A stretch of 64,000 nucleotides of DNA from Nevskia sp. (lineage in GTDB: Bacteria; Pseudomonadota; Gammaproteobacteria; Nevskiales; Nevskiaceae). The notes beneath the pieces are model-generated. The model was not told the DNA's origin. It saw only the letters and a list, made by a program, of their open reading frames with translations, and did not search any database. Positions within the stretch are counted from its first letter, which is position 1, and each line of letters begins with the position of its first letter. This document shows positions 42,743 to 61,013 of the stretch, piece by piece. A program made the translations under genes and the position numbers. The stretch covers positions 36,198 to 100,197 of the forward strand of contig NZ_JAKFUM010000006.1 in the NCBI RefSeq assembly GCF_021732705.1, written 5' to 3'.

Positions 42743-42785
42743 TCCCCGAATTCATCTCGATCACCAGAACTGGAGGAGATTTCCG

Positions 42786-43724: not shown

Positions 43725-43751
43725 TCCGGCTTTACGCGAGCCCGACGAACG

Positions 43752-43893
43752 TCAACCGTTAAACGCAAAGGCGCAAAGGAAACAGAAAGGACGCAAAGAA
43801 AGGCAATCGAAAGAGTGCGGTTTCCAGTTGTCATCGCTGTTCCTTTGCGTCCCTTCTTTTGTCGTTCTTTGCGCCTCTGCGTTGAACTTTTGA
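43752..43893. repeat. Palindromic interspersed element, copy 1 (CGCAAAG x3 arm, spacer, CTTTGCG-type x3 arm)
   Basis: About 50-bp imperfect inverted arms; AACCGTTAA left end and TTTTGA right end shared with the copy at 46128-46260. Confidence 0.85.
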
Positions 43894-43939
43894 TTCGGCT
43901 TTTCCCGCTCCAAGTCAGACCCTGCACGAGCAAGAACAC

Positions 43940-45460
43940 ATGACCCAGTACCTCGACAAAGCCCCCGACGCCGGCCGCCGTTCCCGCAAGGCGGCCGATC
44001 CCTCCGCCGTGAAAGTGGTTGAGGTGCTGATCGTCGGCGCCGGCTTTGCCGGGCTCGGCAGCGCCATCCAGCTGCGCAAGGCCGGCATCACCGACATCGC
44101 GATCGTCGAGCGCGGCACCGAGGTCGGTGGTACCTGGCGCGACAACCAGTATCCGGGTGCGGCCTGCGACATTCCGTCGAACCTCTATTCGTTCTCGTTC
44201 GCCCAGAACCCGGGCTGGACGCGCGGCTACTCGGGCAGCCGGGAAATCCTTGCGTACATCAAGGGGCTGGCGCGCGATCATGACCTGCTGCCGCTGATCC
44301 GCTTCCAGCACAACGTCGAGGCGCTGCATTTCGATGGCGGTGAAGGCGTGTGGACCGTGACCCTGACCGGCCGCGAGCCGATCAAGGCGCGCTCGGTGGT
44401 GATGGCGCAGGGTCCGCTGTCGAACGCCGGCTTCCCGAACATGCGCGGCATCGAGACCTTCCAGGGCAAGAAGATCCACAGCGCGCGCTGGGATCATTCG
44501 TACGACTTCGCCGGCAAGCGCGTGGCCGTGATCGGTACCGGCGCATCCGCTGTCCAGATCATCCCGGAACTGGTCAAGGTCGCCGACAAGGTCAAGGTTT
44601 TCCAGCGCACACCGGGCTGGGTGCTGCCGCGCTTCGACTTCCAGTCGCCGGAGTGGACGAAGGCGCTGTTCGCCAAGCTGCCGGTGTCGCAGACCGCGGT
44701 GCGTGAGGCGATGTACTGGATTCACGAATCGATGGCGCTCGGGATGATCTGGAACACGCCGATGACCAAGGCGCTGGAAATCCTCGGCAATCGCTTCCGC
44801 GAAGCGCAGGTCAAGGACGCCTGGCTGCGTCGCCAGCTGACGCCGGACTTCAAGATCGGCTGCAAGCGCGTGCTGATGACCAACGATTACTACCCGGCGC
44901 TGCAGAAGCCGAACTGCGAGCTGATCTCCTGGCCGATCGCCAACATCTCGGAGAAGGGCATTCGCAGTGTCGAAGGGCTGGAACATCAGGTCGACTGCAT
45001 CGTCTTCGCGACCGGCTTCGAGGTGTCGAAGAACGGCACGCCGTTCCCGGTGCACGGCCTCGGCGGTCGCGATCTGAACGCCGAGTGGTCGGGCGGGGCG
45101 CAGGCCTACAAGAGCGTGCAGGTGTCCGGCTATCCGAACCTGTACTTCACGTTCGGTCCGAATTCAGGCCCCGGCCACAATTCCGCGCTGGTCTACATGG
45201 AATCGCAGATCGATTACATCGTCCGCTCGATCGGCAGGCTGGCGGCGGGCAAGCTCAAGTACATCGACGTGCGTGCCGACGCACAGAAGACCTACAACGT
45301 CGACATTCAGAAGCGGCTCGCGAAGACCAACTGGAACTCCGGCTGCAAGAGCTGGTACCTGTCGGCCGACGGCTTCAACTCGACGATGTTCCCGGGCTTC
45401 GCGACCCAGTTCGCGAAGCAGATGGCGACGTTCCGCGAGCGCGATTACCGGCTGGTCTGA
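43940..45460 (+). CDS. Baeyer-Villiger-type flavin monooxygenase
   Basis: GAGFAG, GGTWRDNQYPGAACD, BVMO fingerprint FQGKKIHSARWD, GTGASA, FATGF. Confidence 0.92.
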   Translation: MTQYLDKAPDAGRRSRKAADPSAVKVVEVLIVGAGFAGLGSAIQLRKAGITDIAIVERGTEVGGTWRDNQYPGAACDIPSNLYSFSFAQNPGWTRGYSGSREILAYIKGLARDHDLLPLIRFQHNVEALHFDGGEGVWTVTLTGREPIKARSVVMAQGPLSNAGFPNMRGIETFQGKKIHSARWDHSYDFAGKRVAVIGTGASAVQIIPELVKVADKVKVFQRTPGWVLPRFDFQSPEWTKALFAKLPVSQTAVREAMYWIHESMALGMIWNTPMTKALEILGNRFREAQVKDAWLRRQLTPDFKIGCKRVLMTNDYYPALQKPNCELISWPIANISEKGIRSVEGLEHQVDCIVFATGFEVSKNGTPFPVHGLGGRDLNAEWSGGAQAYKSVQVSGYPNLYFTFGPNSGPGHNSALVYMESQIDYIVRSIGRLAAGKLKYIDVRADAQKTYNVDIQKRLAKTNWNSGCKSWYLSADGFNSTMFPGFATQFAKQMATFRERDYRLV

Positions 45461-45531
45461 GGTTCACGGAAAAGGGACAGCCGCCTGCGCTAAGCTTTCG
45501 CGGCCGCTCCCACGCTCCACGAGTCAACGAC

Positions 45532-46092
45532 ATGAGTCTTTCGCTGCGCGACCAGCTGCTGCAGGCGGGTCTGATCACCAAGAAGCAGGCCGAGAAGGCA
45601 CAGGCCGCCACCGGCAAGGACAAGCCGCGCGGTCAGCACAATCACGGCAAGCCGGTCGTGGCACAAGCGCCGAATGCCGAAGCGCTGAAGGCCGCGGAAG
45701 CCGCGCGTCTGGCCAAGGCCGCGAAAGATCGCGAACTGATGGAAAAGGCCAAGGAAAAACAGGCCCTGAAGGCGAAGTACGCCGAGATCAAGCAGCTGGT
45801 CGAAGCCAACAAGCTGCCGCCGGTCGCGAGCGAGATGCTCTACAACTTCACCGACCGCAAGAACAATATCCGCCGCATTCCGGTGACGCCGGAACTGCGC
45901 GCCCAGATCATCGACGGCCGCCTCGCGATTGCCCGCTGCGAAGGCCGCTATTTCCTGGTGCCGGCCGCGGTCGGCGACAAGATTCGCGAGCGCGATCCGA
46001 ACGCCGTGGCGGTGATCAACCGCGAGTCCGACAAGGTCGATGAAAACGATCCGTACAAGGACTACAAGGTGCCGGACGATCTGATCTGGTGA
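45532..46092 (+). CDS. DUF2058-family (YaiL-like) protein
   Basis: MSLSLRDQLLQAGL start and DENDPYKDYKVPDDLIW end. Confidence 0.88.
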   Translation: MSLSLRDQLLQAGLITKKQAEKAQAATGKDKPRGQHNHGKPVVAQAPNAEALKAAEAARLAKAAKDRELMEKAKEKQALKAKYAEIKQLVEANKLPPVASEMLYNFTDRKNNIRRIPVTPELRAQIIDGRLAIARCEGRYFLVPAAVGDKIRERDPNAVAVINRESDKVDENDPYKDYKVPDDLIW

Positions 46093-46127
46093 CCATGCCC
46101 CCTCATTCCAGGGGGTCAAGGACAAGG

Positions 46128-46260
46128 CAACCGTTAACCGCAAAGACGCAAAGGAAAAAATCAAGGACGCAAAGATAATCGTGGTGGACGCGACCGCTCA
46201 CAATTTTCCCTTTGCGTCCTCCTTTTTGCCTTTCTTTGCGCCTTTGCGCTTAAATTTTGA
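46128..46260. repeat. Palindromic interspersed element, copy 2
   Basis: Same arm architecture and termini as 43752-43893, with an unrelated central spacer. Confidence 0.85.
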
Positions 46261-46287
46261 GGTGCCTGCTTCAACGCGACGCCGGCT

Positions 46288-47967
46288 TCAGAACAGCCCG
46301 CTGATGTTGCCGTCGGCGTCGACGTCGATCACTTCCGCAGCCGGCCGTGCCGGCAGGCCCGGCATGGTCATGATCTCGCCGCAGACGGCGACGATGAAGC
46401 CGGCACCGGCCGACAGCCGCACCTCGCGCACCGGCAGCATATGGCCGGTCGGTGCGCCCTTCAGGTTCGGGTCGGTCGAGAACGAGTACTGGGTCTTGGC
46501 GATGCAGACCGGGAAGTGGCCGTAACCGGCATCCGCCCATTCCTTCAGCTGCTTCCTGACCTTGCCTTCGGCGCTGACACCGGACGCGCCATAGACCCGC
46601 TTCGCGATCGCTTCGATCTTGCCGAGCAGCGGCAGCTCGTCGGCGTACACCGGTGTCGCGCCCGGCGCGGCGTTCGCTTCGCAAAGCTCGACGACGATCC
46701 GCGCCAGCGCCTCGGCACCGGCGGCACCCTCGGCCCAGTGGCGCGCTTCGACGCAGGCCACGCCCATCGCGGCACAGGCTTCGCGGATCACGGCGAGTTC
46801 GGCCGCCGTGTCGGCCGTGAAATGGTTGATCGACACGACGCACGGCAGGCCGTAGACCTCGCGGACATTGGCCACATGCTTCTGCAGGTTGGCGAGGCCG
46901 GCGCGAACCGCGTCGACGTTCTCGCGGCCCATGTCCGGCATCGCGACGCCGCCGTGGAACTTGATCGCCCGCACCGTGGCGACGATCACCGCGCAGGCCG
47001 GCTTCAGGCCCGCCTGCCGGCACTTGATGTCGATGAACTTCTCGGCGCCCAGATCGGCACCGAAGCCGGCCTCCGTCACCACATATTCTCCGAGCTTCAG
47101 CGCCGTCTGCGTGGCGATCACCGAATTGCAGCCGTGGGCGATATTGGCGAACGGACCCCCGTGGATGATTGCCGGATTGCCGGCGAGGGTCTGGACCAGG
47201 TTCGGCTTGATCGCGTCCTTGAGCAGTGCGGCCATCGCGCCGTCGCACTTCAGATCCTTCGCCGTGACCGGTGCGCCGTCGCGGGTCGATGCGACGACGA
47301 TGCGGCCGAGCCGCGCCTTGAGATCGGCCAGCGACGTCGCCAGACACAGAATCGCCATCACTTCCGAGGCGACCACGATGTTGAAACCGTCCTGCCGCGG
47401 GAAGCCGTTGCCGGGCCCGCCGAGCGACACCACGATGTCGCGCAGCGCGCGGTCGTTCATGTCGACGACGCGCTTCCAGGTGATGCGTCGCACATCGATG
47501 CCCAGCGCGTTGCCGTGATGGATGTGGTTGTCCAGCATCGCGGCCAGCAGGTTATTGGCGAGTGCGATGGCGTGGAAGTCGCCGGTGAAATGGAGGTTGA
47601 TGTCCTCCATCGGCAGCACCTGACTCTGGCCGCCGCCGGTGGCGCCGCCCTTCATGCCGAAGCACGGACCGAGCGAGGGCTCGCGCACGCAGGTGATCGC
47701 GCGCTTGCCGATCAGGTTCAGGGCATCGCCGAGGCCGACCGTCGTCGTGGTCTTGCCTTCACCCGGTGGGGTCGGCGTGATCGCCGTGACCAGCACCAGA
47801 TGGCCATCCGGGCGTGCGCGCAGGCCGGCAATGTAGTCGAGCGACAGCTTGGCCTTGTAATGACCGTAAGGCTCCATTTCGATCGCCGGAATTCCGAGAC
47901 GGGATTCGATCAGCGGAATGATCGGCTGCAGGGTGGCGGCCTTGGCAATCTCGATATCGCTTTTCAT
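46288..47967 (-). CDS. fhs: Formate--tetrahydrofolate ligase
   Basis: [57 protein letters not shown]. Confidence 0.96.
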
Positions 47968-48036
47968 GGGCTCTTCTGTCATGCGCGCCGGCAGCGCGTC
48001 GTGCCGAAATGATAGTCCAACGCCACCCGGTCGCGA

Positions 48037-48966
48037 TCAGGCCTTGGCGGCGGGTGCGCGCTTGCCGAACAGGCGTGTTCCCAGCATGAAGACCGCCAGT
48101 GCAACGGCACCGGCAACGACGCCGATGACCCCATTCAGCAGTGGCGCGAGCACCGCGCCGCCGATGCTGCCGGCGCTTTCGGCCAGATGGTGCACGGTGG
48201 CTTCGCCGCCCGGAATGCCGTGCACGAGAATGCCGCCGCCGACGAGGAACATCGCCGCAGTGCCGACCACCGAAAGCGTCTTCATCAGCTTCGGCGCCGT
48301 TGCCAGCAGTAGGCGGCCGAGCGCCTGCTGACCCGTGCCGGGCTTGCGGCTCAGGTAGAGACCGGCGTCATCGAGCTTGACGATCGCGGCGACGAGACCA
48401 TAGACGCCGACGGTCATGATCACCGAAATGCCGGACAGCACCGCCAGCTGTGACGTCAGCGCGGCACCGGCGACCGTGCCGAGGCTGATCACGATGATCT
48501 CGGCCGACAGCACGAAATCGGTCCGGATCGCGCCCTTGATCTTGTCCCGCTCGAATGCGACCAGATCGATCGCCGGATCCGCCAGCGCGTTCGTCAGTTC
48601 GGCATGGTGAGCCTCGTCTTCTGCGGCCGGATGCAGGAACTTGTGCGCGAGCTTCTCCACACCTTCGAAGCACAGATAGAGGCCGCCAATCATCAGCAGC
48701 GGCAGCACCAGCCCGGGCGCCAGCGCGCTGATCGCCAGCGCCAGCGGCACCAGGATCAGCTTGTTGATGAACGAGCCCTTGGCCACGGCCCAGACCACCG
48801 GCAGTTCGCGCTCGGAGGCGATGCCGGACACCTGCTGCGCATTCAGCGCCAGATCGTCGCCGAGCACGCCGGCGGTCTTGCGCGCGGCGACCTTGGTCAT
48901 CGCGGCGACGTCGTCGAGCAGGGTCGCGATGTCGTCGATCAGGGCAAACAGACTGCTTCCAGCCAC
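48037..48966 (-). CDS. DUF808-family (YedI-like) inner membrane protein
   Basis: SLFALIDDIATLLDDVA, GVLGDDLALNAQQV, GAIRTDFVLSAEI. GTG start with AAGGA upstream. Confidence 0.9.
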   Translation of the reverse strand: MAGSSLFALIDDIATLLDDVAAMTKVAARKTAGVLGDDLALNAQQVSGIASERELPVVWAVAKGSFINKLILVPLALAISALAPGLVLPLLMIGGLYLCFEGVEKLAHKFLHPAAEDEAHHAELTNALADPAIDLVAFERDKIKGAIRTDFVLSAEIIVISLGTVAGAALTSQLAVLSGISVIMTVGVYGLVAAIVKLDDAGLYLSRKPGTGQQALGRLLLATAPKLMKTLSVVGTAAMFLVGGGILVHGIPGGEATVHHLAESAGSIGGAVLAPLLNGVIGVVAGAVALAVFMLGTRLFGKRAPAAKA

Positions 48967-49313
48967 GGCGGCGTTCCTTGTCGGCAAGCGCGAGCGAGCG
49001 CGCGGGAACAGCAGTATGACCGTCCGGGGCCGGTGCGGCAGCGAGCGGGCGACGCCGATTCGACGCGCGCCGGGATTGTCATCGACCTCACGTTAAACTG
49101 TTGTCAACGTTACCGAACTTCACCCGAATGGGGCTTGCGGCGACTGTTGCGTCTGCCGCAAGGTAACCGTGCAGTTCCGGATGTTCCCGGCGGGAACCCT
49201 GATCGGATGCGGCGACTGAACGGAATGCCGTTCCCGCGCGTCCAAGCGACTTCGGCGACGCCCCGGCCCGATGCTTTCGGGCCACACCCACTTCTCAAGA
49301 TGGAGCAAACAGC

Positions 49314-50675
49314 ATGCGCAGAGTCGTCGCTATCGCGCTGGTCATTGGCGCGATCGCCGTGCTCGGTTGGTTCGTGTTTCTTCGCAAGCCGGCGGCGACG
49401 CTCGCGGATGGCAGCGATGCCCCGGCCGCCGCCGGCAAGCCGGGCGAAGGCAAGCGCATCCGGCGCGGCCCCGGCGGTCCCGGTGGCTTCGACGGCCCCA
49501 TTCCGGTCGCCCTGGGCGATGTCGCGCGTCGCGACGTGCCGATCTATCTCGATGGCCTCGGTACCGTGCAGGCGTTCAACACGGTGACGGTCCGGCCGCA
49601 GGTCAGCGGCCAGCTGGTATCGGTCGCGTTCAAGGAGGGGCAGGAGGTGAAGGCCGGCGACCTGCTGGCGCAGATCGACCCGCGCAGCTTCGAAGCACAG
49701 TTGCAGCAGGCGCTGGCGCAGAAATCCCAGAACGAGGCGCTGCTGAACACGGCCAGGCGCGATCTGCAGCGTTTCAGCGAGCTGGTGGGAGACGGTTATG
49801 TCTCCAAGCAGCAGCTCGACACCCAGGCACAGACCGTGGCGCAGCTGCAGGCCACGGTGAAGGCCAACGAGGCGGCGGTGCAGAACGCCCGCATCTCCGT
49901 CGGCTATGCCCGCGTCACCGCACCGATCAGCGGCATCACCGGCCTGCGCCTGGTCGACGTCGGCAATCTGGTCGACGCCGGCACCACCGGCGGGCTGGTC
50001 GTGGTCACGCAGATCAAGCCGATCTCGGTGCTGTTCACCTTGCCCGAGCAGAGTCTCGGCGACATTCGCGCCGCTGGCGGGCAGGGGCTCAAGGTCCTCG
50101 CCTTCGATCGTGACAACACCCGGCAGTTGGCCGCCGGCGAGCTGACCGTGGTCGACAACCAGATCAACCAGACCACCGGCACGATCCTGCTGAAGGCGAC
50201 GTTCCCGAACGATGACAAGGCCCTGTGGCCGGGCCAGTTCGTCAACATGAAGCTGCTGGTCCGCACCGAGAAGAACGGTCTGGTGATTCCGGCCAACGCC
50301 GTGCAGCGCGGCCCGAACGGCGACTTCGTCTATGTCTCCACCGCCAACGAAAAGGGCGAGGCGACCGCCGAGATGCGGCCGATCAAGGTCGCGCTCAGCG
50401 AGGGCGGCACGGCCCTGATCGCCAGCGGACTGAACGACGGCGACCGCATCGTCGTCGATGGCCAGTACCGGCTGCAGCCGGGCTCCAGGATCAAGCCGGC
50501 TGGCGATGCTCCGGCTGCTGATCCGGCGGCTGCGGCCGCACCCGGCGGTGACGCTGCCGGCAAGCCGGGCGAACCGGGCGGCGAACGCAAGCGACGGCGG
50601 CGACCGGATGATGCCGGCGCCGGTCCGGCACCGGTTGAAGCACCGACGCCAGCACCGTCGCCGGCAAAGCCCTGA
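49314..50675 (+). CDS. mdtA: RND efflux periplasmic adaptor, MdtA-type
   Basis: GTVQAFNTVTVRPQVSGQL, APISGITGLRLVDVGN, DNQINQTTGTI-LKA-F-N, LWPGQFVN. Confidence 0.9.
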   Translation: MRRVVAIALVIGAIAVLGWFVFLRKPAATLADGSDAPAAAGKPGEGKRIRRGPGGPGGFDGPIPVALGDVARRDVPIYLDGLGTVQAFNTVTVRPQVSGQLVSVAFKEGQEVKAGDLLAQIDPRSFEAQLQQALAQKSQNEALLNTARRDLQRFSELVGDGYVSKQQLDTQAQTVAQLQATVKANEAAVQNARISVGYARVTAPISGITGLRLVDVGNLVDAGTTGGLVVVTQIKPISVLFTLPEQSLGDIRAAGGQGLKVLAFDRDNTRQLAAGELTVVDNQINQTTGTILLKATFPNDDKALWPGQFVNMKLLVRTEKNGLVIPANAVQRGPNGDFVYVSTANEKGEATAEMRPIKVALSEGGTALIASGLNDGDRIVVDGQYRLQPGSRIKPAGDAPAADPAAAAAPGGDAAGKPGEPGGERKRRRRPDDAGAGPAPVEAPTPAPSPAKP

Positions 50676-50695
50676 GCCCCGAGCCTGCCGCCGCC

Positions 50696-53600
50696 ATGAG
50701 CATTTCCGCGCCGTTCATCTCGCGCCCGATCGCCACCACGCTGATGATGATCGCGGTGGTGCTGCTCGGCGCGCTCGGCTATCGCGGGCTGCCGATCTCG
50801 GCCTTGCCGGCGGTCGATTTCCCGACGATCCAGGTCACCACGCAGTTGCCGGGTGCCAGCCCGCAGGTGATGGAGTCGCTGGTCACGACGCCGCTCGAAC
50901 GGCAGTTCGGCACCATCGCCGGTCTGGCGTCGATGAACTCGAATTCGGCGTTCGGGCTGTCGACGATCACGCTGCAGTTCGTGCTCGATCGCGATATCGA
51001 CAACGCCGCGCAGGACGTGCAGGCCTCGATCAACGCCGCTCGCGGCACCCTGCCGAATGACCTGCCGTATCCGCCGGTCTACAACAAGGTCAACCCGGCC
51101 GATGCGCCGATCCTGCAGCTCGCGATCAGCTCCGACGTGCTGCCGCAGAACCAGGTCGCCGATCTTGCCGATTCGGTGCTGGCGCAGAAGCTGTCGCAGG
51201 TCAGCGGCGTCGGCCTCGTGTCGATCCAGGGCAACCAGCGGCCCGCCGTCCGCGTGCAGGCCAACCCGACCGCGCTCGCGAGCCTCGATCTCGGCCTCGA
51301 AGACATTCGCACGGCGCTGCAGCAGGCGAACGTCAACGCACCGAAAGGCACGTTCGACGGCCCCAAGCAGAGCTTCACCATCGGCTCGAACGACCAGATC
51401 GTCTCCGCCGACGAGTACAAGCCCGTGATCGTCGCGTACCGCAACGGCGCGCCGGTGCGGTTGTCGGACATCGCGACCGTCATCGAAGGCGTCGAAAACG
51501 AGCAGCTCGCCGCTTGGGTGAGTGCGACGAGCTTTGCGAGCACTGCTCGCACGTCGCACGAACGCCCGGGCGTCGGAGACGACCGGGCCGGAACGAGTGC
51601 GACGAGCTTTGCGAGCACTGCTCGCACGTCGCACGAACGCCCCGCCAGGGATGGCGGGGCCGGCGTCAGCGAGACGCGCGAAGTCTCGCCGGGGACGGCA
51701 AGTGCAATCTTTGCCCAAGCAAACTCGACTGCCGCTCAGCAATCCCAACCCCCATCCCGCCCCGCCGTCCTTGTCGACATCCGCCGCCAGCCGGGCGCGA
51801 ACATCATCGAGACCGTCGCGCGCATTCAGGCGCTGCTGCCGCAGCTGACGTCGAGCTTCCCGGCCTCGGTCAAGGTCACGGTGCTGGCCGATCGCACCGA
51901 AACCATCCGTGCCTCGGTGCACGACGTGCAGTTCACGATGCTGCTGACCGTGGCCCTGGTGGTGATGGTGATCTTCGTGTTCCTGCGCAAGCTGTGGGCG
52001 ACTGTGATCCCGAGCATCGCGCTGCCGCTGTCGATCATCGGCACCTTCGGCGTCATGGGCCTGTGCGGCTTTTCGCTCGACAACCTGAGCCTGATGGCGC
52101 TGACCATCGCCACCGGCTTCGTCGTCGACGATGCCATCGTGATGATCGAGAACATCGTCCGCTACATCGAGAAGGGCGAGGACCCGGAAACCGCCGCGCG
52201 CAATGGTGCCAGGCAGATCGGCTTCACCGTGATCTCGCTGACGGTGAGCCTGATCGCCGTGTTCATCCCGCTGCTGTTCATGAGCGGCGTCATCGGCCGG
52301 CTGTTCCGCGAGTTCGCGCTGGTGCTGACCATTGCGGTCACGATCTCGGCCTTCGTCTCGCTGACCCTGACGCCGATGATGTGCGCCAAGCTGCTGAAGC
52401 CCGAGGCGCACGACAAGCCGCGCGGCAAGCTGTTCGACTGGTCCGAGCGCCAGTTCGACAACCTGCTCGGTGGCTACGAGCGCAGCTTGCGCTGGGTCAT
52501 GGCGCGGCCGAAGCAGACGATGCTGGTGTTCGCCTCGACGCTCGTCGCCACCGTGCTGCTGTTCCTGGTGATTCCGAAAGGCCTGCTGCCGCAGCAGGAC
52601 ACGGGCGTGATCGTCGGCGTCGCCGAAGCCGAGGCCAGCATCTCGTTCCCGGCGATGCGGGCGCGGACGCAGGCGCTGACCGACGTCATCCGGCAGGATC
52701 CGGACGTGCAGTCGGTCGCCGCCTTTGTCGGCAGCGGCAGCATCAATCCGACCCTGAACACCGGCCGCCTGAACATCGTGCTGAAGCCGCGGGCGCAGCG
52801 TTCGTCGTCGGCGGACGACGTGATCAAGCGGCTGAAGACGCTGTCCGAGGACGTTGAAGGCATCACGCTGTTCATGCAGCCGGTGCAGGACCTGCAGATC
52901 GACAGTCGCATTGCCCGCACCCAGTACCAGTACGAGCTGAAGAGTCTCGATGCCAGCGAACTGGCCGAGTGGACGCCGAAGCTGATCGAGTCGCTGAAGG
53001 CGCAGGCGCAGCTGACCGATGTCACCACCGAGCAGCAGACCGATGGCCTGTACCTTTCGCTGGCCATCCAGCGCGATCGCGCATCGCGGCTCGGCGTGCC
53101 GGTGCAGGCGATCGACGACACCCTGTACGACGCTTTCGGCCAGCGTCAGGTCACGACCATCTTCACCGCGATCAACCAGTATCGCGTCGTGCTCGAAGTG
53201 CCACCCGAATTCCGCAAGCGGCCCGATGCCCTCGATCAGCTCTACGTGAAATCGACCACCGGCGCGCTGGTGCCGCTGTCGGCCGTGGCGACGGCGACGA
53301 CGACCCGCGGCCCGCTGGTGCTGAGCCATCAGGGCCAGCTGCCGGCGGCGACGATCTCGTTCAACCTGGCACCCGGCTACAGCCTGAGCGATGCGCTGCC
53401 GGCGATCGCGGCCGCCGAGGCCGCGATCGGCCTGCCGGTGTCGGTGCAGCGCAGCTTCACCGGCACGGCCGCCGAATTCCAGAGCGCGCTGGCCAGCATG
53501 CCGTGGCTGATTCTCGCGGCGATCGTCGTGATCTACATCGTGCTCGGCGTGCTGTACGAGAGCTACATCCACCCGATCACGATCCTGTCGACCCTGCCGT

Positions 53601-54049
53601 CGGCCGGCGTCGGTGCGCTGCTGGCGCTGCTGGTCACCGGGCAGGATTTCTCGGTCGTCGCGCTGATCGGCGTGGTGCTGCTGATCGGCATCGTCAAGAA
53701 GAACGCGATCATGATGATCGACTTCGCGCTGGAAGCCGAACGCGATCATGGCAAGGCCCCGCACGAGGCGATCTTCGAAGCGGCGCTGCTGCGTTTCCGG
53801 CCGATCATGATGACGACGATGGCGGCACTGCTCGGTGCATTGCCGCTGGCGCTGGAATCCGGCACCGGTTCCGAGCTTCGCAATCCGCTCGGCATCGCCA
53901 TCGTCGGCGGTCTGGTGCTGAGCCAGATGCTGACCCTGTACACGACGCCGGTGATCTACCTGTACATGGGGCAACTGGCCGAGCGCCTGTCGAAGCGCTT
54001 CGGCCGCGCCGATGACGCGCCGGACGCGGTCGCAGGCCGGTACCCGTGA
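50696..54049 (+). CDS. mdtB: RND efflux permease, MdtB-type, with an in-frame insertion of about 77 aa
   Basis: FISRPIATTL, ATGFVVDDAIVMIENI, GIVKKNAIMMIDFA, RFRPIMMTT. Insertion at 51521-51757. Confidence 0.92.
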   Translation: MSISAPFISRPIATTLMMIAVVLLGALGYRGLPISALPAVDFPTIQVTTQLPGASPQVMESLVTTPLERQFGTIAGLASMNSNSAFGLSTITLQFVLDRDIDNAAQDVQASINAARGTLPNDLPYPPVYNKVNPADAPILQLAISSDVLPQNQVADLADSVLAQKLSQVSGVGLVSIQGNQRPAVRVQANPTALASLDLGLEDIRTALQQANVNAPKGTFDGPKQSFTIGSNDQIVSADEYKPVIVAYRNGAPVRLSDIATVIEGVENEQLAAWVSATSFASTARTSHERPGVGDDRAGTSATSFASTARTSHERPARDGGAGVSETREVSPGTASAIFAQANSTAAQQSQPPSRPAVLVDIRRQPGANIIETVARIQALLPQLTSSFPASVKVTVLADRTETIRASVHDVQFTMLLTVALVVMVIFVFLRKLWATVIPSIALPLSIIGTFGVMGLCGFSLDNLSLMALTIATGFVVDDAIVMIENIVRYIEKGEDPETAARNGARQIGFTVISLTVSLIAVFIPLLFMSGVIGRLFREFALVLTIAVTISAFVSLTLTPMMCAKLLKPEAHDKPRGKLFDWSERQFDNLLGGYERSLRWVMARPKQTMLVFASTLVATVLLFLVIPKGLLPQQDTGVIVGVAEAEASISFPAMRARTQALTDVIRQDPDVQSVAAFVGSGSINPTLNTGRLNIVLKPRAQRSSSADDVIKRLKTLSEDVEGITLFMQPVQDLQIDSRIARTQYQYELKSLDASELAEWTPKLIESLKAQAQLTDVTTEQQTDGLYLSLAIQRDRASRLGVPVQAIDDTLYDAFGQRQVTTIFTAINQYRVVLEVPPEFRKRPDALDQLYVKSTTGALVPLSAVATATTTRGPLVLSHQGQLPAATISFNLAPGYSLSDALPAIAAAEAAIGLPVSVQRSFTGTAAEFQSALASMPWLILAAIVVIYIVLGVLYESYIHPITILSTLPSAGVGALLALLVTGQDFSVVALIGVVLLIGIVKKNAIMMIDFALEAERDHGKAPHEAIFEAALLRFRPIMMTTMAALLGALPLALESGTGSELRNPLGIAIVGGLVLSQMLTLYTTPVIYLYMGQLAERLSKRFGRADDAPDAVAGRYP
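51520..51642. repeat. Two identical 48-bp hairpin-forming direct repeats inside mdtB
   Basis: GAGTGCGACGAGCTTTGCGAGCACTGCTCGCACGTCGCACGAACGCCC at 51520-51567 and 51595-51642, 75 bp apart. Confidence 0.92.
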
Positions 54050-57000
54050 ACTTCAGCGCCGCGTTCATCCGGCGGCCGATCGGCACCTCGCTGCTGGCGA
54101 TCGGGGTGTTCCTGATCGGCGTGCTGGCGTATTCGCGGCTGCCGGTGGCGCCGCTGCCGCAGGTCGAGTTCCCGATCATCTTCGTGTCGACCCAGCAGCC
54201 CGGCGCCAGCCCGGAAACGATGGCGCAGACCGTGGCGGCGCCGCTCGAACGGCGCTTCGGCCAGATCCCCGGCGTCAACGAGATCACCTCGACCAGCGCG
54301 CTGGGCAGCACGACGATCATCCTGCAGTTCGACCTGAACCGGGAGATCGACGGGGCCGCGCGCGATGTGCAGGCCGCGATCAACGCGTCGCTGGCCGATC
54401 TGCCGGCCGGGCTGCCGTCGCCGCCGACCTATCGCAAGGCCAATCCCAACGACGCGCCGATCCTGATCCTGGCGATGACCTCGGACAATGTCGGCCTCGA
54501 CAAGGTCTACGAGGTTGCCGACACCCAGTTGAGCCCGAGCCTGTCGCAGATTCCGGGCGTGGCCGAAGTCCAGATTTCCGGCGCTGCCAAACCGGCGATC
54601 CGCATCCAGGCCAATCCCGGCGCGCTGGCGCGGATGGGCCTGTCGATGGCGACCGTCCGCAATGCCGTGACCAGCCTCACGGTCAATCGCTCGAAAGGCT
54701 CGCTCAGCGATGAATCGAGCACCTGGGTGCTCGATGCCAACGATCAGCTGGCGACGGTCGAGGACTTCAAGAACGCGATCATCTCGACCCGCGACGGCGT
54801 GCCGATTCCGCTGTCGTCGGTCGCCACCGTGATCGAAGGACAGGAGAACACGCGGCTGGCCGGCTGGTTCAATGGCAAGCGCGCGGTGCTGCTGTTCATT
54901 CGCAAGCAGGCCGATGCCAACGTCATCGAGACCGTCGACCAGATCCTGGCCGAGCTGCCGGCCTTGCGTGCCAGCATGCCGGCGGGCGTCGACATCTCGA
55001 TCCAGGCCGATCGCACGCAGACCATCCGCGCGTCGGTGCACGAGGTGCAGATCGCGCTGGTGGTATCGACGGCGCTGGTCATCCTCGTGATGTTCATGTT
55101 CCTGCGCCGCGGCGTGCCGACGGCGATTGCCGGCGTCACCGTGCCGCTGGCGCTGGCGGCGACCTTCGCGGCGATGTGGCTGCTCGACTACAGCCTCGAC
55201 AACCTGTCGCTGATCGCATTGACCGTCTCGGTCGGCTTCGTCGTCGATGACGCGATCGTCGTGATCGAGAACATCGTCCGGCACATCGAGCGCGGCGAGA
55301 AGCCGATGCAGGCGGCGCTGCGCGGCACGCGCGAGATCGGCTTCACGGTGCTGTCGATCACCGTCAGCCTGATCGCCGTGTTCGTGCCGATCCTGTTCCT
55401 CGGCGGCATCCCGGGGCGCCTGTTCCGCGAGTTCTCGGTGACCCTGTCGATCGCCGTCGTGGTGTCGGCGCTGATTTCGCTGACCCTGACGCCCGCGCTG
55501 TGCGCGCGCTTCCTGCGCGCCGAGCGCCATGACCGGCCGCCCGGCATCGTCGGCCGCAGCCTCGAAGCGATGCTCGACCGCATGCTCGGCGCCTATCGGG
55601 TCTGCCTCGACTGGACCCTGCGCCACACGCGGATCATGGCCGTGCTGACCGTGGCCATGGTCTTCGTCACCGGCTGGCTGTACGGCGTGGTGCCCAAAGG
55701 CTTCTTCCCGCAGCAGGACACCGGCCTGATCAACGGCAGCATCGTGGCGGCGCAGGACACCTCGTTCGAGGCCATCACCGACAAGGTGCTGAAGCTCGCC
55801 GATGTCGTGCTGGCCGATCCGGCGGTGGCGTCGGCCGTCTACTTCGTCGGCGGCAATCGGCGCGCGTCGAACTCCGGTCGCATGTTCATCAACCTGAAGA
55901 CGCCGGAGCAGGGCCGCAAGGTCACGGCCGATCAGGTGATCGAACGGCTGCGGCCGAAGTCGGCGAAGGTCGAAGGGGTCGAGATGTTCCTGCGGCCGAT
56001 CCAGGACCTGCGCGCCGGTGGCCGTGCCGGGCGCGCGCAGTTCATCTACGCCCTGTCGTCGCCGGAAACGGCGGACCTTTACGAGTGGACGCCGAAGCTG
56101 GTCGAGCGCCTGAAGAAGCTGCCGCAGCTGCGCGATGTCAGCTCCGATCTCGAAACCGGCGCGCTGCAGCTGAACGTCATCGTCAATCGCGATGCCGCGT
56201 CGCGGCTCGGCCTGCGGCCGGCGACGATCGATCAGGCGCTGTACGACGCCTTCGGCCAGCGCCAGATCGCGCTGCTGTACGACCGCACCAACCAGTACCG
56301 CGTGATCCTCGAAGCCACGCCGGACGAGCAGCGCGATCCCTCCGCGCTGGGCCGCGTGCAGATCGCGACACCGACCGGCGCCAGCGTGCCGCTGTCATCG
56401 GTCGCGCGCTTCGAGTTCGGCACGGCGCCGCTGTCGATCAACCACGAAGGCCAGTTCACCGTCGTCAACCTGACCTTCAATCTGGCACCCGGTGCCTCGC
56501 TGCCGCAGGTCACGCCGCTGATCCAGCGCGAGATGGCGGAAATCCAGATGCCGGGCACCATACGCGGGAGCTTCGGCGGCAGTGCCGCGTTGTTCGCCAG
56601 CGGCCTGTCGAGCTTTCCGATCCTGCTGATCACCGCACTGCTCGCCGTCTACATCGTGCTCGGCATGCTGTACGAAAGCTGGATCCATCCGCTGACCATC
56701 CTGTCGACGATTCCGTCGGCCGGCATCGGCGCGCTGCTGGCGCTGCTCGCGTTCAACATGGAACTGTCGCTGGTCGCGATCATCGGCATCATCCTGCTGA
56801 TCGGCATCGTCAAGAAGAACGCGATCCTGATGATCGACTTCGCGCTGGAAGCGCAGCGCAATCGCGGCCTGACGCCGCGCGAGGCGATCCACGAAGCCTG
56901 CCTGACCCGGTTCCGGCCGATCACGATGACGACGATGGCCGCCGTGTTCGGCGCCGTGCCGCTGGCGATCGGGCTCGGCACCGGCTCGGAACTGCGTCAG

Positions 57001-57156
57001 CCCCTCGGCGTGGCGATCATCGGTGGCCTGCTGCTGAGCCAGTTGCTGACGCTGTTCACGACGCCGGTGGTCTATCTCGGCTTCGAGAAGCTCAGCCGCG
57101 GCGTGCGCCGCCTGCGCGCACGATTGCCGCGTCGTGTGGCGGTCAACCCGGCCTGA
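54046..57156 (+). CDS. mdtC: RND efflux permease, MdtC-type
   Basis: Second paralogous RND permease, GTGA-overlapping mdtB; VGFVVDDAIVVIENI, GIVKKNAILMIDFA. Confidence 0.92.
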   Translation: MNFSAAFIRRPIGTSLLAIGVFLIGVLAYSRLPVAPLPQVEFPIIFVSTQQPGASPETMAQTVAAPLERRFGQIPGVNEITSTSALGSTTIILQFDLNREIDGAARDVQAAINASLADLPAGLPSPPTYRKANPNDAPILILAMTSDNVGLDKVYEVADTQLSPSLSQIPGVAEVQISGAAKPAIRIQANPGALARMGLSMATVRNAVTSLTVNRSKGSLSDESSTWVLDANDQLATVEDFKNAIISTRDGVPIPLSSVATVIEGQENTRLAGWFNGKRAVLLFIRKQADANVIETVDQILAELPALRASMPAGVDISIQADRTQTIRASVHEVQIALVVSTALVILVMFMFLRRGVPTAIAGVTVPLALAATFAAMWLLDYSLDNLSLIALTVSVGFVVDDAIVVIENIVRHIERGEKPMQAALRGTREIGFTVLSITVSLIAVFVPILFLGGIPGRLFREFSVTLSIAVVVSALISLTLTPALCARFLRAERHDRPPGIVGRSLEAMLDRMLGAYRVCLDWTLRHTRIMAVLTVAMVFVTGWLYGVVPKGFFPQQDTGLINGSIVAAQDTSFEAITDKVLKLADVVLADPAVASAVYFVGGNRRASNSGRMFINLKTPEQGRKVTADQVIERLRPKSAKVEGVEMFLRPIQDLRAGGRAGRAQFIYALSSPETADLYEWTPKLVERLKKLPQLRDVSSDLETGALQLNVIVNRDAASRLGLRPATIDQALYDAFGQRQIALLYDRTNQYRVILEATPDEQRDPSALGRVQIATPTGASVPLSSVARFEFGTAPLSINHEGQFTVVNLTFNLAPGASLPQVTPLIQREMAEIQMPGTIRGSFGGSAALFASGLSSFPILLITALLAVYIVLGMLYESWIHPLTILSTIPSAGIGALLALLAFNMELSLVAIIGIILLIGIVKKNAILMIDFALEAQRNRGLTPREAIHEACLTRFRPITMTTMAAVFGAVPLAIGLGTGSELRQPLGVAIIGGLLLSQLLTLFTTPVVYLGFEKLSRGVRRLRARLPRRVAVNPA

Positions 57157-57218
57157 TCCCGGCATCCGTCGACGAAAGCCGCACCGCTGCGTCGGCAAAC
57201 GAGTAAACTGCGCGCCTT

Positions 57219-57295
57219 CGGAGAGTAGCTCAGCTTGGTAGAGCACCTGCTTTGGGAGCAGGGGGTCGCAGGTTCGATTCCTGTCTCTCCGACCA
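57219..57295 (+). tRNA. tRNA-Pro (anticodon TGG)
   Basis: 77-nt cloverleaf CGGAGAG...CTCTCCGACCA, anticodon arm CCTGC-TTTGGGA-GCAGG. TAAACT plus a GC-rich discriminator lies upstream. Confidence 0.97.
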
Positions 57296-57312
57296 GTTTT
57301 CGCATTCGCATT

Positions 57313-57349
57313 ACGACAAAGGCCGCTCATCGAGCGGCCTTTGTCGTTT
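57313..57349. terminator. Intrinsic, probably bidirectional, terminator between tRNA-Pro and the P450 gene
   Basis: ACGACAAAGGCCGCTC...GAGCGGCCTTTGTCGT followed by TT: a 16-bp perfect stem. Confidence 0.8.
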
Positions 57350-57375
57350 CCGGGGCTCGCCTGCCCGCTACGAGA

Positions 57376-59001
57376 TCAGGCGCCGAAGGCTTCCTGGGCC
57401 GCCGCGGTGTTCATGAAGTCGCGGAAGTGCAGCCACTTGCCGTTGCGGATCGTGATCACGTGGACGAAGTCGGAGTCGATGCTGCCGCCGGTCTTGCGCG
57501 CGGTCAGGCGCAGGTGGCCGGTGACCACCACCTTGTCGCCGCTGGCGATGAATTCCTCGGCGTCGAACTGGTGGATGTCGACCGAGGCCAGCACGGTGTC
57601 GAAGAAGCGACGGGCTTCGTCGCGCGTCCGGTAATGGCCGGCGTACGGAATCGTGGCCGGACCGTAGAAGTCGATCACCACGTCGTCGTCGAGCAGTTCG
57701 AGTATGCCCGGCACGTCGGCGGCGCCGAAGCGGGCGAAGACTTCCCTGACCATCGCGATGTTGCTGGCCTCTAAGCTCGCAAGCTTGGGCTCCAGGATCA
57801 GCGGCAGCGTGGTGCAGCTGTGCTGCAGCAGGGTCGCGGTCTGTGCAACGGTGGGCGCGAGCCCGGGTCGCAGGCTGCGGTAACCATCGAGCAGACCGGC
57901 AATCAGGCACTCCACTTCCAGGCTCGCCAGCGGGGCGCCGAGGCAGTAGTGGATGCCGTGGCCGAAGCTCAGATGCTGGCCGGCGTTCTCGCGATTGAGG
58001 CTGAAGCGCATCGGGTCCGGGAAGACCTCGGGGTCGTGGTTGGCGGCGGCGAAGAACAGCGCTACCCATTCGCCGGCGGCGATCGTGCGACCGCCGATCT
58101 CGACGTCTCGTGTCACCTGCCGGAACAGGCGCTGCGGCGGGCCGGTCATGCGCAGCGTTTCGTGCAGGAAGCGGCCGATCTTCGAGCGGTCGGTCTGCAG
58201 TTCGGCCCAGACCTCGGGATGTTCGGCCAGCACTTTCAGGCAGTTGGCGGCGAAGTACATCGTGGTTTCGCTGCCGGCGACGACGAGGGTGAAGCAGAAG
58301 CGCCAGACCTCGTCGGTGCTGAGCGTCTGGCCTTCGGATTCGGCGGTCAGCAGGGCATCGATCAGGTCGTCGTTCGGGCTTGCGCCGGCGGCGAGCCGTG
58401 CCGCGCGCTCGGCGACGGTCTGCACGAAGTAGCCGACCATCTCGCGATTGCTGATGTCGCGGTCTTCCGCCGACAGGTCGGCACTGAGCATGAAGGCGTT
58501 GGACCAGCGCTGGAAGCGGTCGGTCAGATCGGCCGGAAGCCCCAGCAGATGCACCATCAGCCGCGCCGGCAGGCCCGCACACAGCGCGGACACGCCATCG
58601 AATTCGCCAGCCGGCAGCTGGCCGATCAGATCACGCACCACCGCTTCGATTGCCGGCCGCAGTTCGCGCACCCGCTTCGGCGTGAACGCCTTGACCACGA
58701 TGCGGCGCAGCTTCGCGTGTTCCGGATCGTCGTGGTTGACCAGCATCAGGATCGGCGCGCCGGTGCCTTGCTGGAAGTTGGCGGACGAGAACGTGACCGG
58801 ATCGCGCGCGGCCGCCTGCACGTGTGCGTGCTTGAGCAGCGCCCAGGCCCGCAGCGGCGCGTCGCGGCCGGGAACGGTGCCGGGCGGCCAATCGGCATAG
58901 CCGGGCAGCGGCGATTCGGCGCGCAGCGCGGCGTAGGCCGGGTAGGGATTGGCGATGACCTCGGGCGTGGCCAGATCGCGGGCTTCGTAGCGTGGGTGCA
59001 T
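57376..59001 (-). CDS. Cytochrome P450 fused to a C-terminal SnoaL/NTF2-like domain
   Basis: I-helix VAGSETT, K-helix ETLR, AANHDP, heme motif FGHGIHYCLG. Continuous ORF into NIAMVREVFARF...GDKVVVTG...FVHVITIRNGKW-HFRDFMNT. Confidence 0.88.
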   Translation of the reverse strand: MHPRYEARDLATPEVIANPYPAYAALRAESPLPGYADWPPGTVPGRDAPLRAWALLKHAHVQAAARDPVTFSSANFQQGTGAPILMLVNHDDPEHAKLRRIVVKAFTPKRVRELRPAIEAVVRDLIGQLPAGEFDGVSALCAGLPARLMVHLLGLPADLTDRFQRWSNAFMLSADLSAEDRDISNREMVGYFVQTVAERAARLAAGASPNDDLIDALLTAESEGQTLSTDEVWRFCFTLVVAGSETTMYFAANCLKVLAEHPEVWAELQTDRSKIGRFLHETLRMTGPPQRLFRQVTRDVEIGGRTIAAGEWVALFFAAANHDPEVFPDPMRFSLNRENAGQHLSFGHGIHYCLGAPLASLEVECLIAGLLDGYRSLRPGLAPTVAQTATLLQHSCTTLPLILEPKLASLEASNIAMVREVFARFGAADVPGILELLDDDVVIDFYGPATIPYAGHYRTRDEARRFFDTVLASVDIHQFDAEEFIASGDKVVVTGHLRLTARKTGGSIDSDFVHVITIRNGKWLHFRDFMNTAAAQEAFGA

Positions 59002-59073
59002 CGTCGTCTCCTCGCTGCTCGATAATGGTTTCCAGGGATCAACCGGCATCCCGTTTTATGGCGACGTTCAACT

Positions 59074-59718
59074 ATGTCCTCAGGACACAATAAGTCCGCG
59101 ATTCCGGCGAGGTCAAACCGTGCGCGGTCGACGAAGAGCGCAACCGTGCCCGCGACACCGTCGCCCGATGCCGCGCCGTCGCCGGTGTCGCAGGCCGCGC
59201 GGGACTTTCTCAATCTGTTCTATCCGGTGCACTACAAGATCGGCATTGGGATCGAGGACGCGCTGCGAGGCGGCCGGCTGACCCGCCATCAGGTGGCGAT
59301 CCTGTGGCTGATCCGCTCCGAAGGCGAGGGCGGCAAGCGCATCGCCCGCAAGGAGATCGAGCGTTCGATCACCCGCTGGTTCGAAATCGGCAACTCGGCG
59401 ATTTCCAAGGCCTTGCGGGTGCTGGCGAAGCCGCCGCACGAGCTGCTGGCGATCGTCGAGAACCCGCTGTCGGCACGCGAGCGCTACGTGCTGCTGACGC
59501 CTGCGGGCGAGCAGCAGATCGAATGGATGATCGATCAGGGCCACCGTTTCCTGCAGCGCATGGTCGATCACCTGCGCGCCGACGAATCGGCGCAGGGCGT
59601 GCATTTCCTGACACGGGTCAGCGCGATCATCGACATCGTCGCGCGTGAAAAGCCGGTGGCGTCGGCGGCACCGGCAGCGGCTGCCGAAGGCCGCAAGCCG
59701 CGTCGGGCGCGGCGTTAG
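59074..59718 (+). CDS. MarR-like winged-helix regulator
   Basis: LTRHQVAILWLI, GNSAISKALRVL, RERYVLLTPAG; divergent from the P450. Start uncertain. Confidence 0.72.
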   Translation: MSSGHNKSAIPARSNRARSTKSATVPATPSPDAAPSPVSQAARDFLNLFYPVHYKIGIGIEDALRGGRLTRHQVAILWLIRSEGEGGKRIARKEIERSITRWFEIGNSAISKALRVLAKPPHELLAIVENPLSARERYVLLTPAGEQQIEWMIDQGHRFLQRMVDHLRADESAQGVHFLTRVSAIIDIVAREKPVASAAPAAAAEGRKPRRARR

Positions 59719-59739
59719 CGGCTTCCGGCGCGGATCGCT

Positions 59740-60831: not shown

Positions 60832-61013
60832 GTCGAAAAGCAGGGATGGACAGGCGGGCACGGCCGGGCAGACTGGACATCGGGCGATGCCTGCACGACG
60901 AACCGCACCCGGTCAGGCGGCGATTCTGCCCTGCGCGGCGAGGCGGTGCGTTGACGCGCCGACGCGAAGGCGGCACTCGCATGCCAAGGTCGCCACTGCC
61001 GCCGCGTCGCGGA

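Follow-up and report, generated by a model that had tools for sequence, protein, structure and literature searches.

Palindromic DNA that lies in frame within a protein-coding gene raises the question of where it came from and what keeps it there. We addressed this question for a locus of Nevskia sp. in a stretch of 64,000 nt (assembly GCF_021732705.1, contig NZ_JAKFUM010000006.1, positions 36,198 to 100,197; this whole stretch is called the window below). In the operon mdtABC, the gene mdtB for a permease of the resistance-nodulation-division (RND) type contains an additional segment of repeats and hairpins. An earlier note, made from the sequence alone, had taken this segment for an element of the kind known as repetitive extragenic palindromes (REP) or Rickettsia palindromic elements (RPE). 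Our analysis showed that the insert is real and that it does not belong to such a dispersed family. The reading that we favour, in which we place even confidence, is that it is the local form of a single-locus, Nevskia-restricted array of hairpins and tandem repeats, which perpetuates itself and is tolerated in a permissive surface turn of MdtB. Judged from the sequences compared, the array in mdtB is old and genus-level, hypervariable in units of 75 nt and equipped with covarying hairpins.

A palindromic insert within the mdtB reading frame

MdtB reads W274-V-(79 aa)-R-P-A-V-L at this place, with codons 276-354 corresponding to 51521-51757 and without a stop or frameshift, where the paralogue MdtC reads W-FNGKR-AVL. 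The net gain is 77 aa, as the earlier note had stated, and the additional codons all lie in the turn after the invariant W274. When insert-free orthologues are used as reference, the inserted DNA interrupts the Val275 codon after its second base, and its left end is the exact start of the first of two 48-nt repeats, R1 and R2 (Table 1). Excising 51520-51750 gives TGG GTC CCA TCC CGC CCC GCC GTC (W-VPSR-PAV), which is the canonical length of 11 residues, as in Nevskia ramosa.

R1 and R2 are identical over 48 nt and lie 75 nt apart. Such a pair was not expected in any of 100 shuffles, and the window has no other long exact direct repeat. In both copies, GUGCGACG/CGUCGCAC enclose UGCGAGC-ACU-GCUCGCA to give a nested hairpin, H1 (-24.4 kcal/mol, z = -3.5), confirming the description of the repeats given before. 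Further stems had been described as well; the pair GCGAGAC/GTCTCGC (H5) is present but no better than shuffles, and GGCAA/TTGCC is weak (z = -0.4). The entire 251-nt region folds at -133 kcal/mol, 5 sd better than shuffles (z = -5.0), and ranks only 48th among 1275 same-sized windows of a sequence with 66% GC. R1, spacer and R2 are able to pair as a single long hairpin, like a REP doublet. The architecture of the insert is 1.6 units (1.64) plus two more hairpins and a tail: unit 1 consists of H1 and H2, unit 2 of H1 and H4, followed by H5 and the tail. Tandem Repeats Finder did not report the array in the window, since 1.64 units are too short for it. An origin of the whole insert by serial duplication of its flank (GVENEQ../GVGDD../GVSETRE..) was considered and rejected (flank versus spacer, P = 0.05; unit C versus A and B, P = 0.07-0.7).

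The public runs that contain the stretch number at least 20 and come from different studies. In nine runs at ~5x or more, the Logan unitigs have the same order: left flank, 48-mer, 87-nt spacer, 48-mer, right flank. The 87-nt unitig joining R1 and R2 (51538-51624) was found in X1, X7-X9, X14, X19, X25, X36 and X38, appears as a 105-nt contig (51538-51642) in X26 and X29, two runs of low coverage, and is missing only from X27 (depth 2.1). The depth of the 48-mer is about twice that of the flank (in X38, 24.3 versus 11.7, with the spacer at 11.9); unitig-depth ratios scatter from 1x to 3x at 5-40x coverage, centred on 2, and hence we make no claim on copy number. Contigs skipping the entire insert were not found in the assembled runs, and five independent assemblies carry it (L001, L003 and L088-L090). 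The insert is fixed.

These data bear on the objection that the segment could be an artefact of assembly, as the earlier note had itself considered, or of sequencing, for instance a duplicated or chimeric stretch. Metagenome contigs do often break at the repeat (L001 begins inside copy 1), and one 230-nt contig in X27 (depth 2.1) links 51519 straight to 51595, which corresponds to an allele shorter by one 75-nt unit (25 aa). This short contig may be a de Bruijn-graph artefact from spacer k-mers missing at low coverage. An identical sequence, with the unitig between R1 and R2, recurs across 12 runs of differing studies and years and in the five assemblies, and homologous inserts occur in other Nevskia species. 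The artefact explanation is refuted in practice and its probability is next to nil.

Retention of the insert in mRNA was looked for in four of the runs (X8, X9, X25 and X26), which are labelled as RNA from other organisms. Their depth is flat, ~9-41x over 42000-61000, across genes on both strands and intergenic DNA; flat depth over these 19 kb points to contaminating genomic DNA, not RNA.

Inserts, empty sites and copies elsewhere

A search with MdtC identified Nevskia ramosa and other Nevskia as relatives, 79-84% identical. Their mdt operons are orthologous, since they have CobS upstream or P450-SnoaL/HTH_27 downstream in common. No insert is present in L091 (N. ramosa, three strains), L092 and L093, where the turn reads W-V-(GA/NA/DT)-(R/K)-S-A-V-L. 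Two further species carry additional residues at the codon that is interrupted in the window, 101 aa in L094, encoded by four tandem 75-nt units (SADRFASTARSPHERPSGGADRAGT, then SATDFSSTARSPHERPSGGADRAGT three times) without a tail, and 67 aa in L095 (VSGTRLASTARS...QRPAMDGRAGASEARDVAPGT...SESRP). The inserts of the window, L094 and L095 all begin with GT|GAGTG... in the Val codon, and taking them out restores the canonical length; those of L094 and L095 are homologous to that of the window. L095 has the same layout as the window, two units plus a tail, with one good H1, a different perfect hairpin in place of the second H1 and another hairpin, GGCGCG/CGCGCC, at the place homologous to H5. The carriers have between 67 and 101 extra residues, and tails of different species are unrelated. 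Whole inserts are 43-63% identical between species; the flanking coding DNA is 84-94% identical.

In L094, units 2-4 (2494-2718 of that locus) are near-identical to each other; a G>T change breaks their core palindrome and their outer stem is mismatched, so that unit 1 only is perfect. Since units 2-4 are near-identical and share the broken core, the amplification in L094 is recent and started from a degenerate unit.

The stems of these inserts change in pairs. In the outer stem of H1, three adjacent pairs differ on both sides between the window (GTGCGACG/CGTCGCAC) and unit 1 of L094 (GTGCGGAC/GTCCGCAC), ACG/CGT being replaced by GAC/GTC. Between H2 and the L094 units two pairs show compensatory change, G-C having become A-U and U-A having become G-C, and comparison of H4 with its counterpart in L095 (GCCCGGCCA-TGGA-TGGCCGGGC) gave one such pair (C-G to G-C). 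Of the cells in the unit alignment, 88.7% are paired, versus 27-47% with slid partners. Six pairs are changed on both sides (3.1 +/- 1.2 in shuffles, of which 8 of 500 reach six), and the covariation score is 0.107 versus 0.060 in shuffles (0 of 500 reach it). This is good evidence, although from a small sample of related sequences and not proof, that the hairpins are maintained by compensatory change; the remaining sequence drifts to ~60% identity. The window, unit 1 of L094 and L095 have the same inner palindrome, TGCGAGCA-C-TGCTCGCA; each carrier species has at least one perfect core beside the left junction.

By similarity of MdtB and MdtC the species form the groups L091, L093 and L095, L092 and L094, and the window alone; inference on the history of the insert rests on these six taxa. 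Common descent of the inserts is favoured by the identical junction and by an insert divergence that is about that of neutral DNA between these species. A recent transfer into L095 was considered and rejected, as the flanks of L095 remain closest to L093 and L091, which speaks for common descent as well.

Copies outside mdtB were searched in several ways. A third copy of the 48-mer was not found in the 64 kb at <= 3 mismatches, nor is the insert similar to the remainder of the window. The wider search for the 48-mer that the earlier note had proposed, made together with the remaining 125 nt at 80% likeness on the contigs of four runs that hold the genome, gave only the expected mdtB pieces. 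As positive control, the same 80% test was applied to another palindromic element, whose arms had a depth of 155 versus 11.6 (~13x) and were found on 7-30 contigs per run with many flanks; the test is thus able to see dispersed repeats. With a covariance model of the R1 unit, the mdtB inserts were the only hits in 152 kb of Nevskia and related DNA (E = 8e-17 to 7e-7); all other matches had E > 0.05, or > 0.7 outside mdtB. The palindrome core is restricted to mdtB among the 95 loci and has 0 matches in viral contigs. Scans of plasmids and phages with the insert gave chance-level matches only, except for one hairpin described below. The hairpin pattern was not found in the genome contig collection, nor the hairpin and tail patterns in metagenome contigs, scans that also missed known carriers (the JGI contig of L001) and are therefore uninformative.

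The ends of the insert were inspected as well. GTAG and CTAC are absent from it; CGTC and GACG occur only within stems, CGTC not being placed at an end. The stems differ in geometry from those described for tagged REPs (PMC3733652), their bases being all G/C and a CCA tail being lacking. Terminal inverted repeats and target-site duplications were not found at the insert ends; the best candidate for the former matches at 12/20 positions, and the best direct repeat, GCCGCT, would remove the invariant Trp. A miniature inverted-repeat transposable element (MITE) was accordingly rejected, as the insert has neither feature. It does have the stable GC-rich stem-loops (H1, H4) by which REP, RPE and the REP doublets termed REPIN are recognised, and it behaves like an RPE in that it lies in frame without a stop, its host gene is under purifying selection and the frame is open in three species. 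Many dispersed copies and the terminal tag and geometry are lacking. Since it fails the testable defining features, copy number and terminal tag, the mdtB insert is not a member of a dispersed REP/RPE-type family. Of the earlier assignment, the palindromic, in-frame and non-coding-like character stands; membership in such a family, with a single locus and with neither tag, terminal inverted repeat nor target-site duplication, does not.

A non-autonomous mobile element of the REP/REPIN/RPE or IS200/IS605 kind (palindrome-associated transposable elements, PATE), with hairpin ends, site-specific insertion and seamless excision, could also have landed in frame here and be translated in the manner of Rickettsia RPEs. 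Such an element would account for the palindromic stem-loops and the doublet-like pairing of R1, spacer and R2, for the absence of a target-site duplication, for the left end (GAGTG...) that is the same in three species, for the seamless empty sites of the sister species and for the patchy occurrence. REPs within open reading frames (ORFs) are documented, sometimes at the same site in related species (PMC3733652). However, a second copy was not seen in the window, the four runs, the 95 loci or the 152 kb despite a working control, and the viral, plasmid and phage searches were likewise empty. Furthermore, the tags and geometry are not those of the CGTC family, and the L095 flanks follow the species tree with no sign of recent transfer. 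We regard this origin as rather improbable.

Two further elements were observed beside these searches. The H4 segment (51637-51663) is identical at 26/27 nt, loop included, to an intergenic hairpin, GCGCCCCGCCAGGGATGGCGGGGCCGG, in L087, the Pseudomonas aeruginosa plasmid pHPA0008-4 (NZ_CP137521.1, 1711-1740); with E = 1e-3 it is the sole such match in 72,556 plasmids. The element used as control occurs in the window in two intergenic copies of ~135 nt (43756-43895 and 46131-46260), AT-richer than the genome and with arms of CGCAAAGG-type motifs, which fold as long imperfect hairpins at -55 and -52 kcal/mol. Because its arms reach ~13x genome depth with many different flanks in the four runs, the element represents a true dispersed family of MITE/REPIN-like type, which has no relationship to the mdtB insert.

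Host gene, insertion site and encoded loop

The gene mdtB is assigned to the Mdt-type HAE-1 RND permeases of the MdtABC system on the basis of its ACR_tran fold, the gene order mdtA-mdtB-mdtC and its closest solved relative, Escherichia coli MdtB (9lyq_B; E = 1.8e-73 with a 294-aa fragment as query). The match to the Pfam family ACR_tran (PF00873; 1085.8 bits) is split in two at profile position 275. The insertion turn aligns with N282-G283 of AcrB, so that the AcrB NG turn named in the earlier note was the correct equivalent, and lies between W283 and Q288 in E. coli MdtB. It leads from the strand behind the DN subdomain to the one that follows in the PN2/PC1 sheet, and PN2 is exposed at the periphery (PMC8277102).

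Loop length was scored in 72 orthologue loci from many phyla (<= 66% identical, among the matches listed). The distance from Trp to RQPGAN is 11 residues in 68 of the 72. Other lengths at this turn among these matches were +3, +4 and +16 (three Acidobacteriaceae: L036, L041, L060), and protein matches showed +4, +5 and ~+21 aa (P0012). As insertions of +3 to ~+21 aa occur there in orthologues, the turn is permissive. These small insertions in other phyla share the site with the Nevskia inserts, but they have fewer residues and no sequence relationship to them. The MdtB turn is longer by 4 or 5 aa in the closest clade outside Nevskia (e.g., WVADGRNGYKPAVLL). The active trimer B2C contains MdtB twice (PMC12802153), and MdtB may be the more permissive partner of this trimer, a possible reason why the loop is tolerated.

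The composition of the insert is non-coding-like. GC at the three codon positions (GC1/2/3) is 0.62/0.72/0.67, versus 0.64/0.43/0.91 in the rest of mdtB, where the lowest GC3 of any 237-nt window is 0.81 or above. An index resembling the codon adaptation index is 0.31 for the insert versus 0.78 (range 0.61-0.89) for the rest of the gene, in agreement with the non-host codons reported before. Coding periodicity was not seen in the insert in any phase on either strand, and all six of its reading frames are nearly stop-free. An exhaustive phmmer search with the insert peptide gave 0 matches in 1.84 billion representative proteins. A word-index search gave no candidate but missed MdtB itself too, and is hence uninformative. 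In an AlphaFold2 model (72-sequence alignment), residues 282-351 have a predicted local distance difference test score (pLDDT) of 30-43, and the flanking strands 273-276 and 354-364 are confident. The insert peptide is thus an orphan and predicted to be disordered. A self-splicing intron, an intein and a known structured RNA were also considered and rejected (best Rfam score 21.8 bits versus a gathering score of 168; no Pfam family on the insert).

Strains of the same species were compared to determine how gene and insert evolve. Relative to L003, the most distant strain (98.7% identity), mdtB outside the insert has 36 synonymous and 2 non-synonymous differences, which shows that the gene is under purifying selection. 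The insert has 4 non-synonymous changes and 1 synonymous change (Fisher P = 6e-4); with 4:1 inside versus 2:36 outside, the pump is under purifying selection but the inserted peptide is not. Four of the five differences lie at 51738-51754, the last two (51753, 51754) just past 51750; these four changes in 17 nt turn QQSQPPS into LQPQPQS and look like one multi-nucleotide event, not independent substitutions. Two within-species changes in the hairpin part both spare the structure, one being C>U, which gives a G.U pair, and the other lying in a loop. Over a tract of 1.6 kb (50533-52122), insert flanks included, the window is identical to L088, L089 and L090, which diverge normally around it (~20 differences in the rest of mdtB, 542 in 23 kb). 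This identity is a within-species recombination mosaic. Because the tract matches the window fully, L088-L090 are uninformative on constraint of the insert.

The results on the peptide bear on the proposal that the loop is a functional protein module, for instance one that alters how MdtA docks, how the trimer assembles or how substrates enter at the PN2/PC1 sheet. Three species have preserved an open frame through heavy remodelling, FASTAR-like and RPA-DG-AG...PGT motifs are shared at the protein level, and the peripheral exposure of PN2 would suit such a role. Against it stand the orphan, predicted disordered peptide with its non-coding composition, the mostly non-synonymous within-species changes, a length that varies from 67 to 101 extra residues with an unrelated tail, and sister species without insert; moreover, all six frames are nearly stop-free in any case. 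We consider a protein function very improbable.

Features of the operon and of the insert are compiled in Table 1. MdtA has low-complexity tails rich in Ala, Pro and Gly, encoded at the 3' end of mdtA (50478-50672) and at 49390-49500. The C-terminal tail comprises ~65 aa (KPAGDAPAADPAAAAAPGG...APTPAPSPAKP) with a GC3 of ~0.58-0.66, and four strain differences are clustered at 50518-50532. The organism of the window is a freshwater Nevskia, and its species is also found in drinking-water, freshwater, air and wastewater metagenomes.

Table 1. Genes of the mdtABC operon and parts of the mdtB insert in the window
Feature	Position	Strand	Description
mdtA	49314-50675	+	membrane-fusion protein, 453 aa; first gene of the operon; RND-MFP Pfam families on identical product
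mdtB	50696-54049	+	RND permease, 1117 aa; host of the insert; ORF and translation
mdtC	54046-57156	+	paralogous RND permease, 1036 aa; canonical turn W-FNGK-RAVL
Insert	51520-51750	+	231 nt, in frame; simplest placement from insert-free orthologues, junction ambiguous by a few bases
Unit 1	51520-51594	+	R1 and H2; one complete 75-nt unit
Repeat R1	51520-51567	+	48 nt; contains nested hairpin H1 (51522-51559)
Palindrome core	51535-51551	+	TGCGAGCACTGCTCGCA; perfect, 17 nt, inside H1
Hairpin H2	51564-51588	+	GCCCGGG-CGTC-GGA-GACG-ACCGGGC; z = -2.1
Repeat R2	51595-51642	+	begins the second, incomplete unit
Hairpin H4	51639-51660	+	GCCCCGCCA-GGGA-TGGCGGGGC; 9 perfect pairs, z = -2.9; occupies the place of H2 in unit 2
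Hairpin H5	51669-51689	+	GCGAGAC...GTCTCGC; weak, z = -1.1
Tail	51701-51750	+	AIFAQANSTAAQQSQP; lower GC, hairpin-poor, fast-evolving; GC1/2/3 0.6/0.6/0.4

Origin and upkeep of the array

In the reading that we favour, the array would have arisen once, from non-coding-like or de novo palindromic DNA, and would have entered or originated in the mdtB turn of a Nevskia ancestor. The number of units would then have been altered by slippage between the direct repeats, and hairpin-mediated template switching, selection on structure or the two together would have regenerated the stems. The ribosome would read through the array, and the loop, rich in Ser, Thr, Ala, Arg, Gly and Pro, would be a tolerated by-product and not an evolved domain.

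Several observations weigh against a single old gain and against a purely neutral or selfish array. The presence of the insert cuts across the similarity groups: L091 and L093 lack it and L095 has it, L092 lacks it and L094 has it, and the window has it. One old gain followed by three seamless losses amounts to four events, and three gains or transfers amount to three. The Val codon is GTC in all insert-free alleles and GTG in all carriers, and repeated deletion seems to sit uneasily with this split and with a threefold exact return to canonical length. Identity of the 17-18-nt core extends to five third positions that are synonymous and to two rare codons ending in T (ACT, GCT), in inserts whose remainder is 43-63% identical. 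This invariant core looks like a constraint specific to the sequence, and such a constraint is not predicted for an array that is purely neutral or selfish. Finally, the hairpin part shows 1 difference to L003, whereas the synonymous rate predicts 7.9 (P = 0.003, in a single comparison).

The last two observations lead to the alternative that the array, or at least the leftmost H1 with its palindrome, is a selected cis-acting nucleic-acid element and the peptide its price. This element could be a protein-binding site in DNA (operator or looping), or an RNA structure that acts in stability or processing of the mdtABC mRNA or in ribosome pausing, forms which we consider unlikely even when taken together. 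Besides the core that is invariant at synonymous sites in three species and a hairpin part that diverges less than synonymous sites, this proposal can draw on the compensatory stem changes, on the structure-sparing changes within the species and on the perfect core that each species keeps next to the left junction while units 2-4 of L094 decay. On the other hand, three related species including N. ramosa manage without the insert. A partner site for the palindrome, as in an operator pair, was not found in the window at <= 3 mismatches, the insert matches no Rfam family, and its + strand has no terminator or promoter signature. Moreover, template switching that maintains palindromes can mimic covariation (PMC8794818), and only three species were available. 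That the leftmost hairpin with the 17-nt palindrome is a selected cis element, whether as a binding site for a protein, as an RNA structure or as the hairpin by which a seamlessly excising site-specific element is recognised, is in our view possible but doubtful. If it were true, the disordered loop of 67-101 aa would be a translated by-product, and the element would have persisted as several Nevskia species diverged, within an array that grows, shrinks and forms its stems anew.

The array of our favoured reading shares traits with several known systems. Rickettsia RPEs occur in many copies per genome, and RPE-4 and RPE-6 have a terminal CGTC tag (Ogata et al., 2000, summarised in PMC3733652). 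Like them, the Nevskia array is palindromic DNA in frame in a functional gene that adds a surface segment, is present or absent at the same site among relatives and evolves with its host gene; unlike them, it is confined to a single locus, has no terminal CGTC tag and consists of tandem 75-nt units. REPs have been described inside ORFs of free-living Thauera, Opitutus, Xanthomonas and Stenotrophomonas, where clusters encode as many as 82 aa (Di Nocera et al., 2013, PMC3733652), so that an element of this type in a free-living bacterium is not new. Tagged REPs have stems of 8-9 bp starting with A/T pairs, loops of 4-5 nt and a CCA tail, GTAG REPs are associated with REP-associated tyrosine (RAYT) transposases, and different REPs occupy the same recB site in two Xanthomonas species (PMC3733652). 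The REPs and REP clusters found in ORFs (GTAG/CGTC-tagged), and REPIN doublets, resemble the array in their GC-rich stem-loops, sometimes clustered, that add 20-82 residues to known proteins. Their definition, however, rests on a high copy number and on a tag at the end, with fixed sizes of stem and loop, and the Nevskia array has neither.

Template-switch hairpins have been described for rRNA and for eukaryotic and yeast genes (PMC8794818), also in coding sequence (PMC8604942). They have in common with the array perfect or near-perfect stems, adjacent pairs changed on both arms at once and the replacement of a hairpin by a new one in place, but in Nevskia the mechanism is a surmise. Intragenic repeats similar to variable number tandem repeats have the same kind of in-frame period (75 nt, 25 aa) and of variation in unit number, 1.6 in the window versus 4 in L094. 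The Nevskia units differ from these in that they are themselves paired hairpins, and length differences within the species are seen only as the X27 contig at depth 2.1. The dispersed element of the genome itself (43756-43895, 46131-46260) is likewise a long imperfect hairpin in the same genome; it is, in contrast to the mdtB insert, intergenic, AT-richer, built from CGCAAAGG-type motifs and present at many loci, and has no sequence similarity to it.

The mdtB insert is therefore no evidence for an RPE-like family spreading in a free-living bacterium. It offers a clean natural example of palindromic, non-coding-like DNA inside a membrane transporter of essential fold, which would be read through as protein. 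With three diverged inserts and three empty sites among close relatives, it becomes directly testable whether selection on structure or template switching maintains hairpins in coding DNA. The Nevskia mdtB set also opens to testing the birth of disordered protein segments and the tolerance of an RND pump to insertions in the PN2/PC1 turn.

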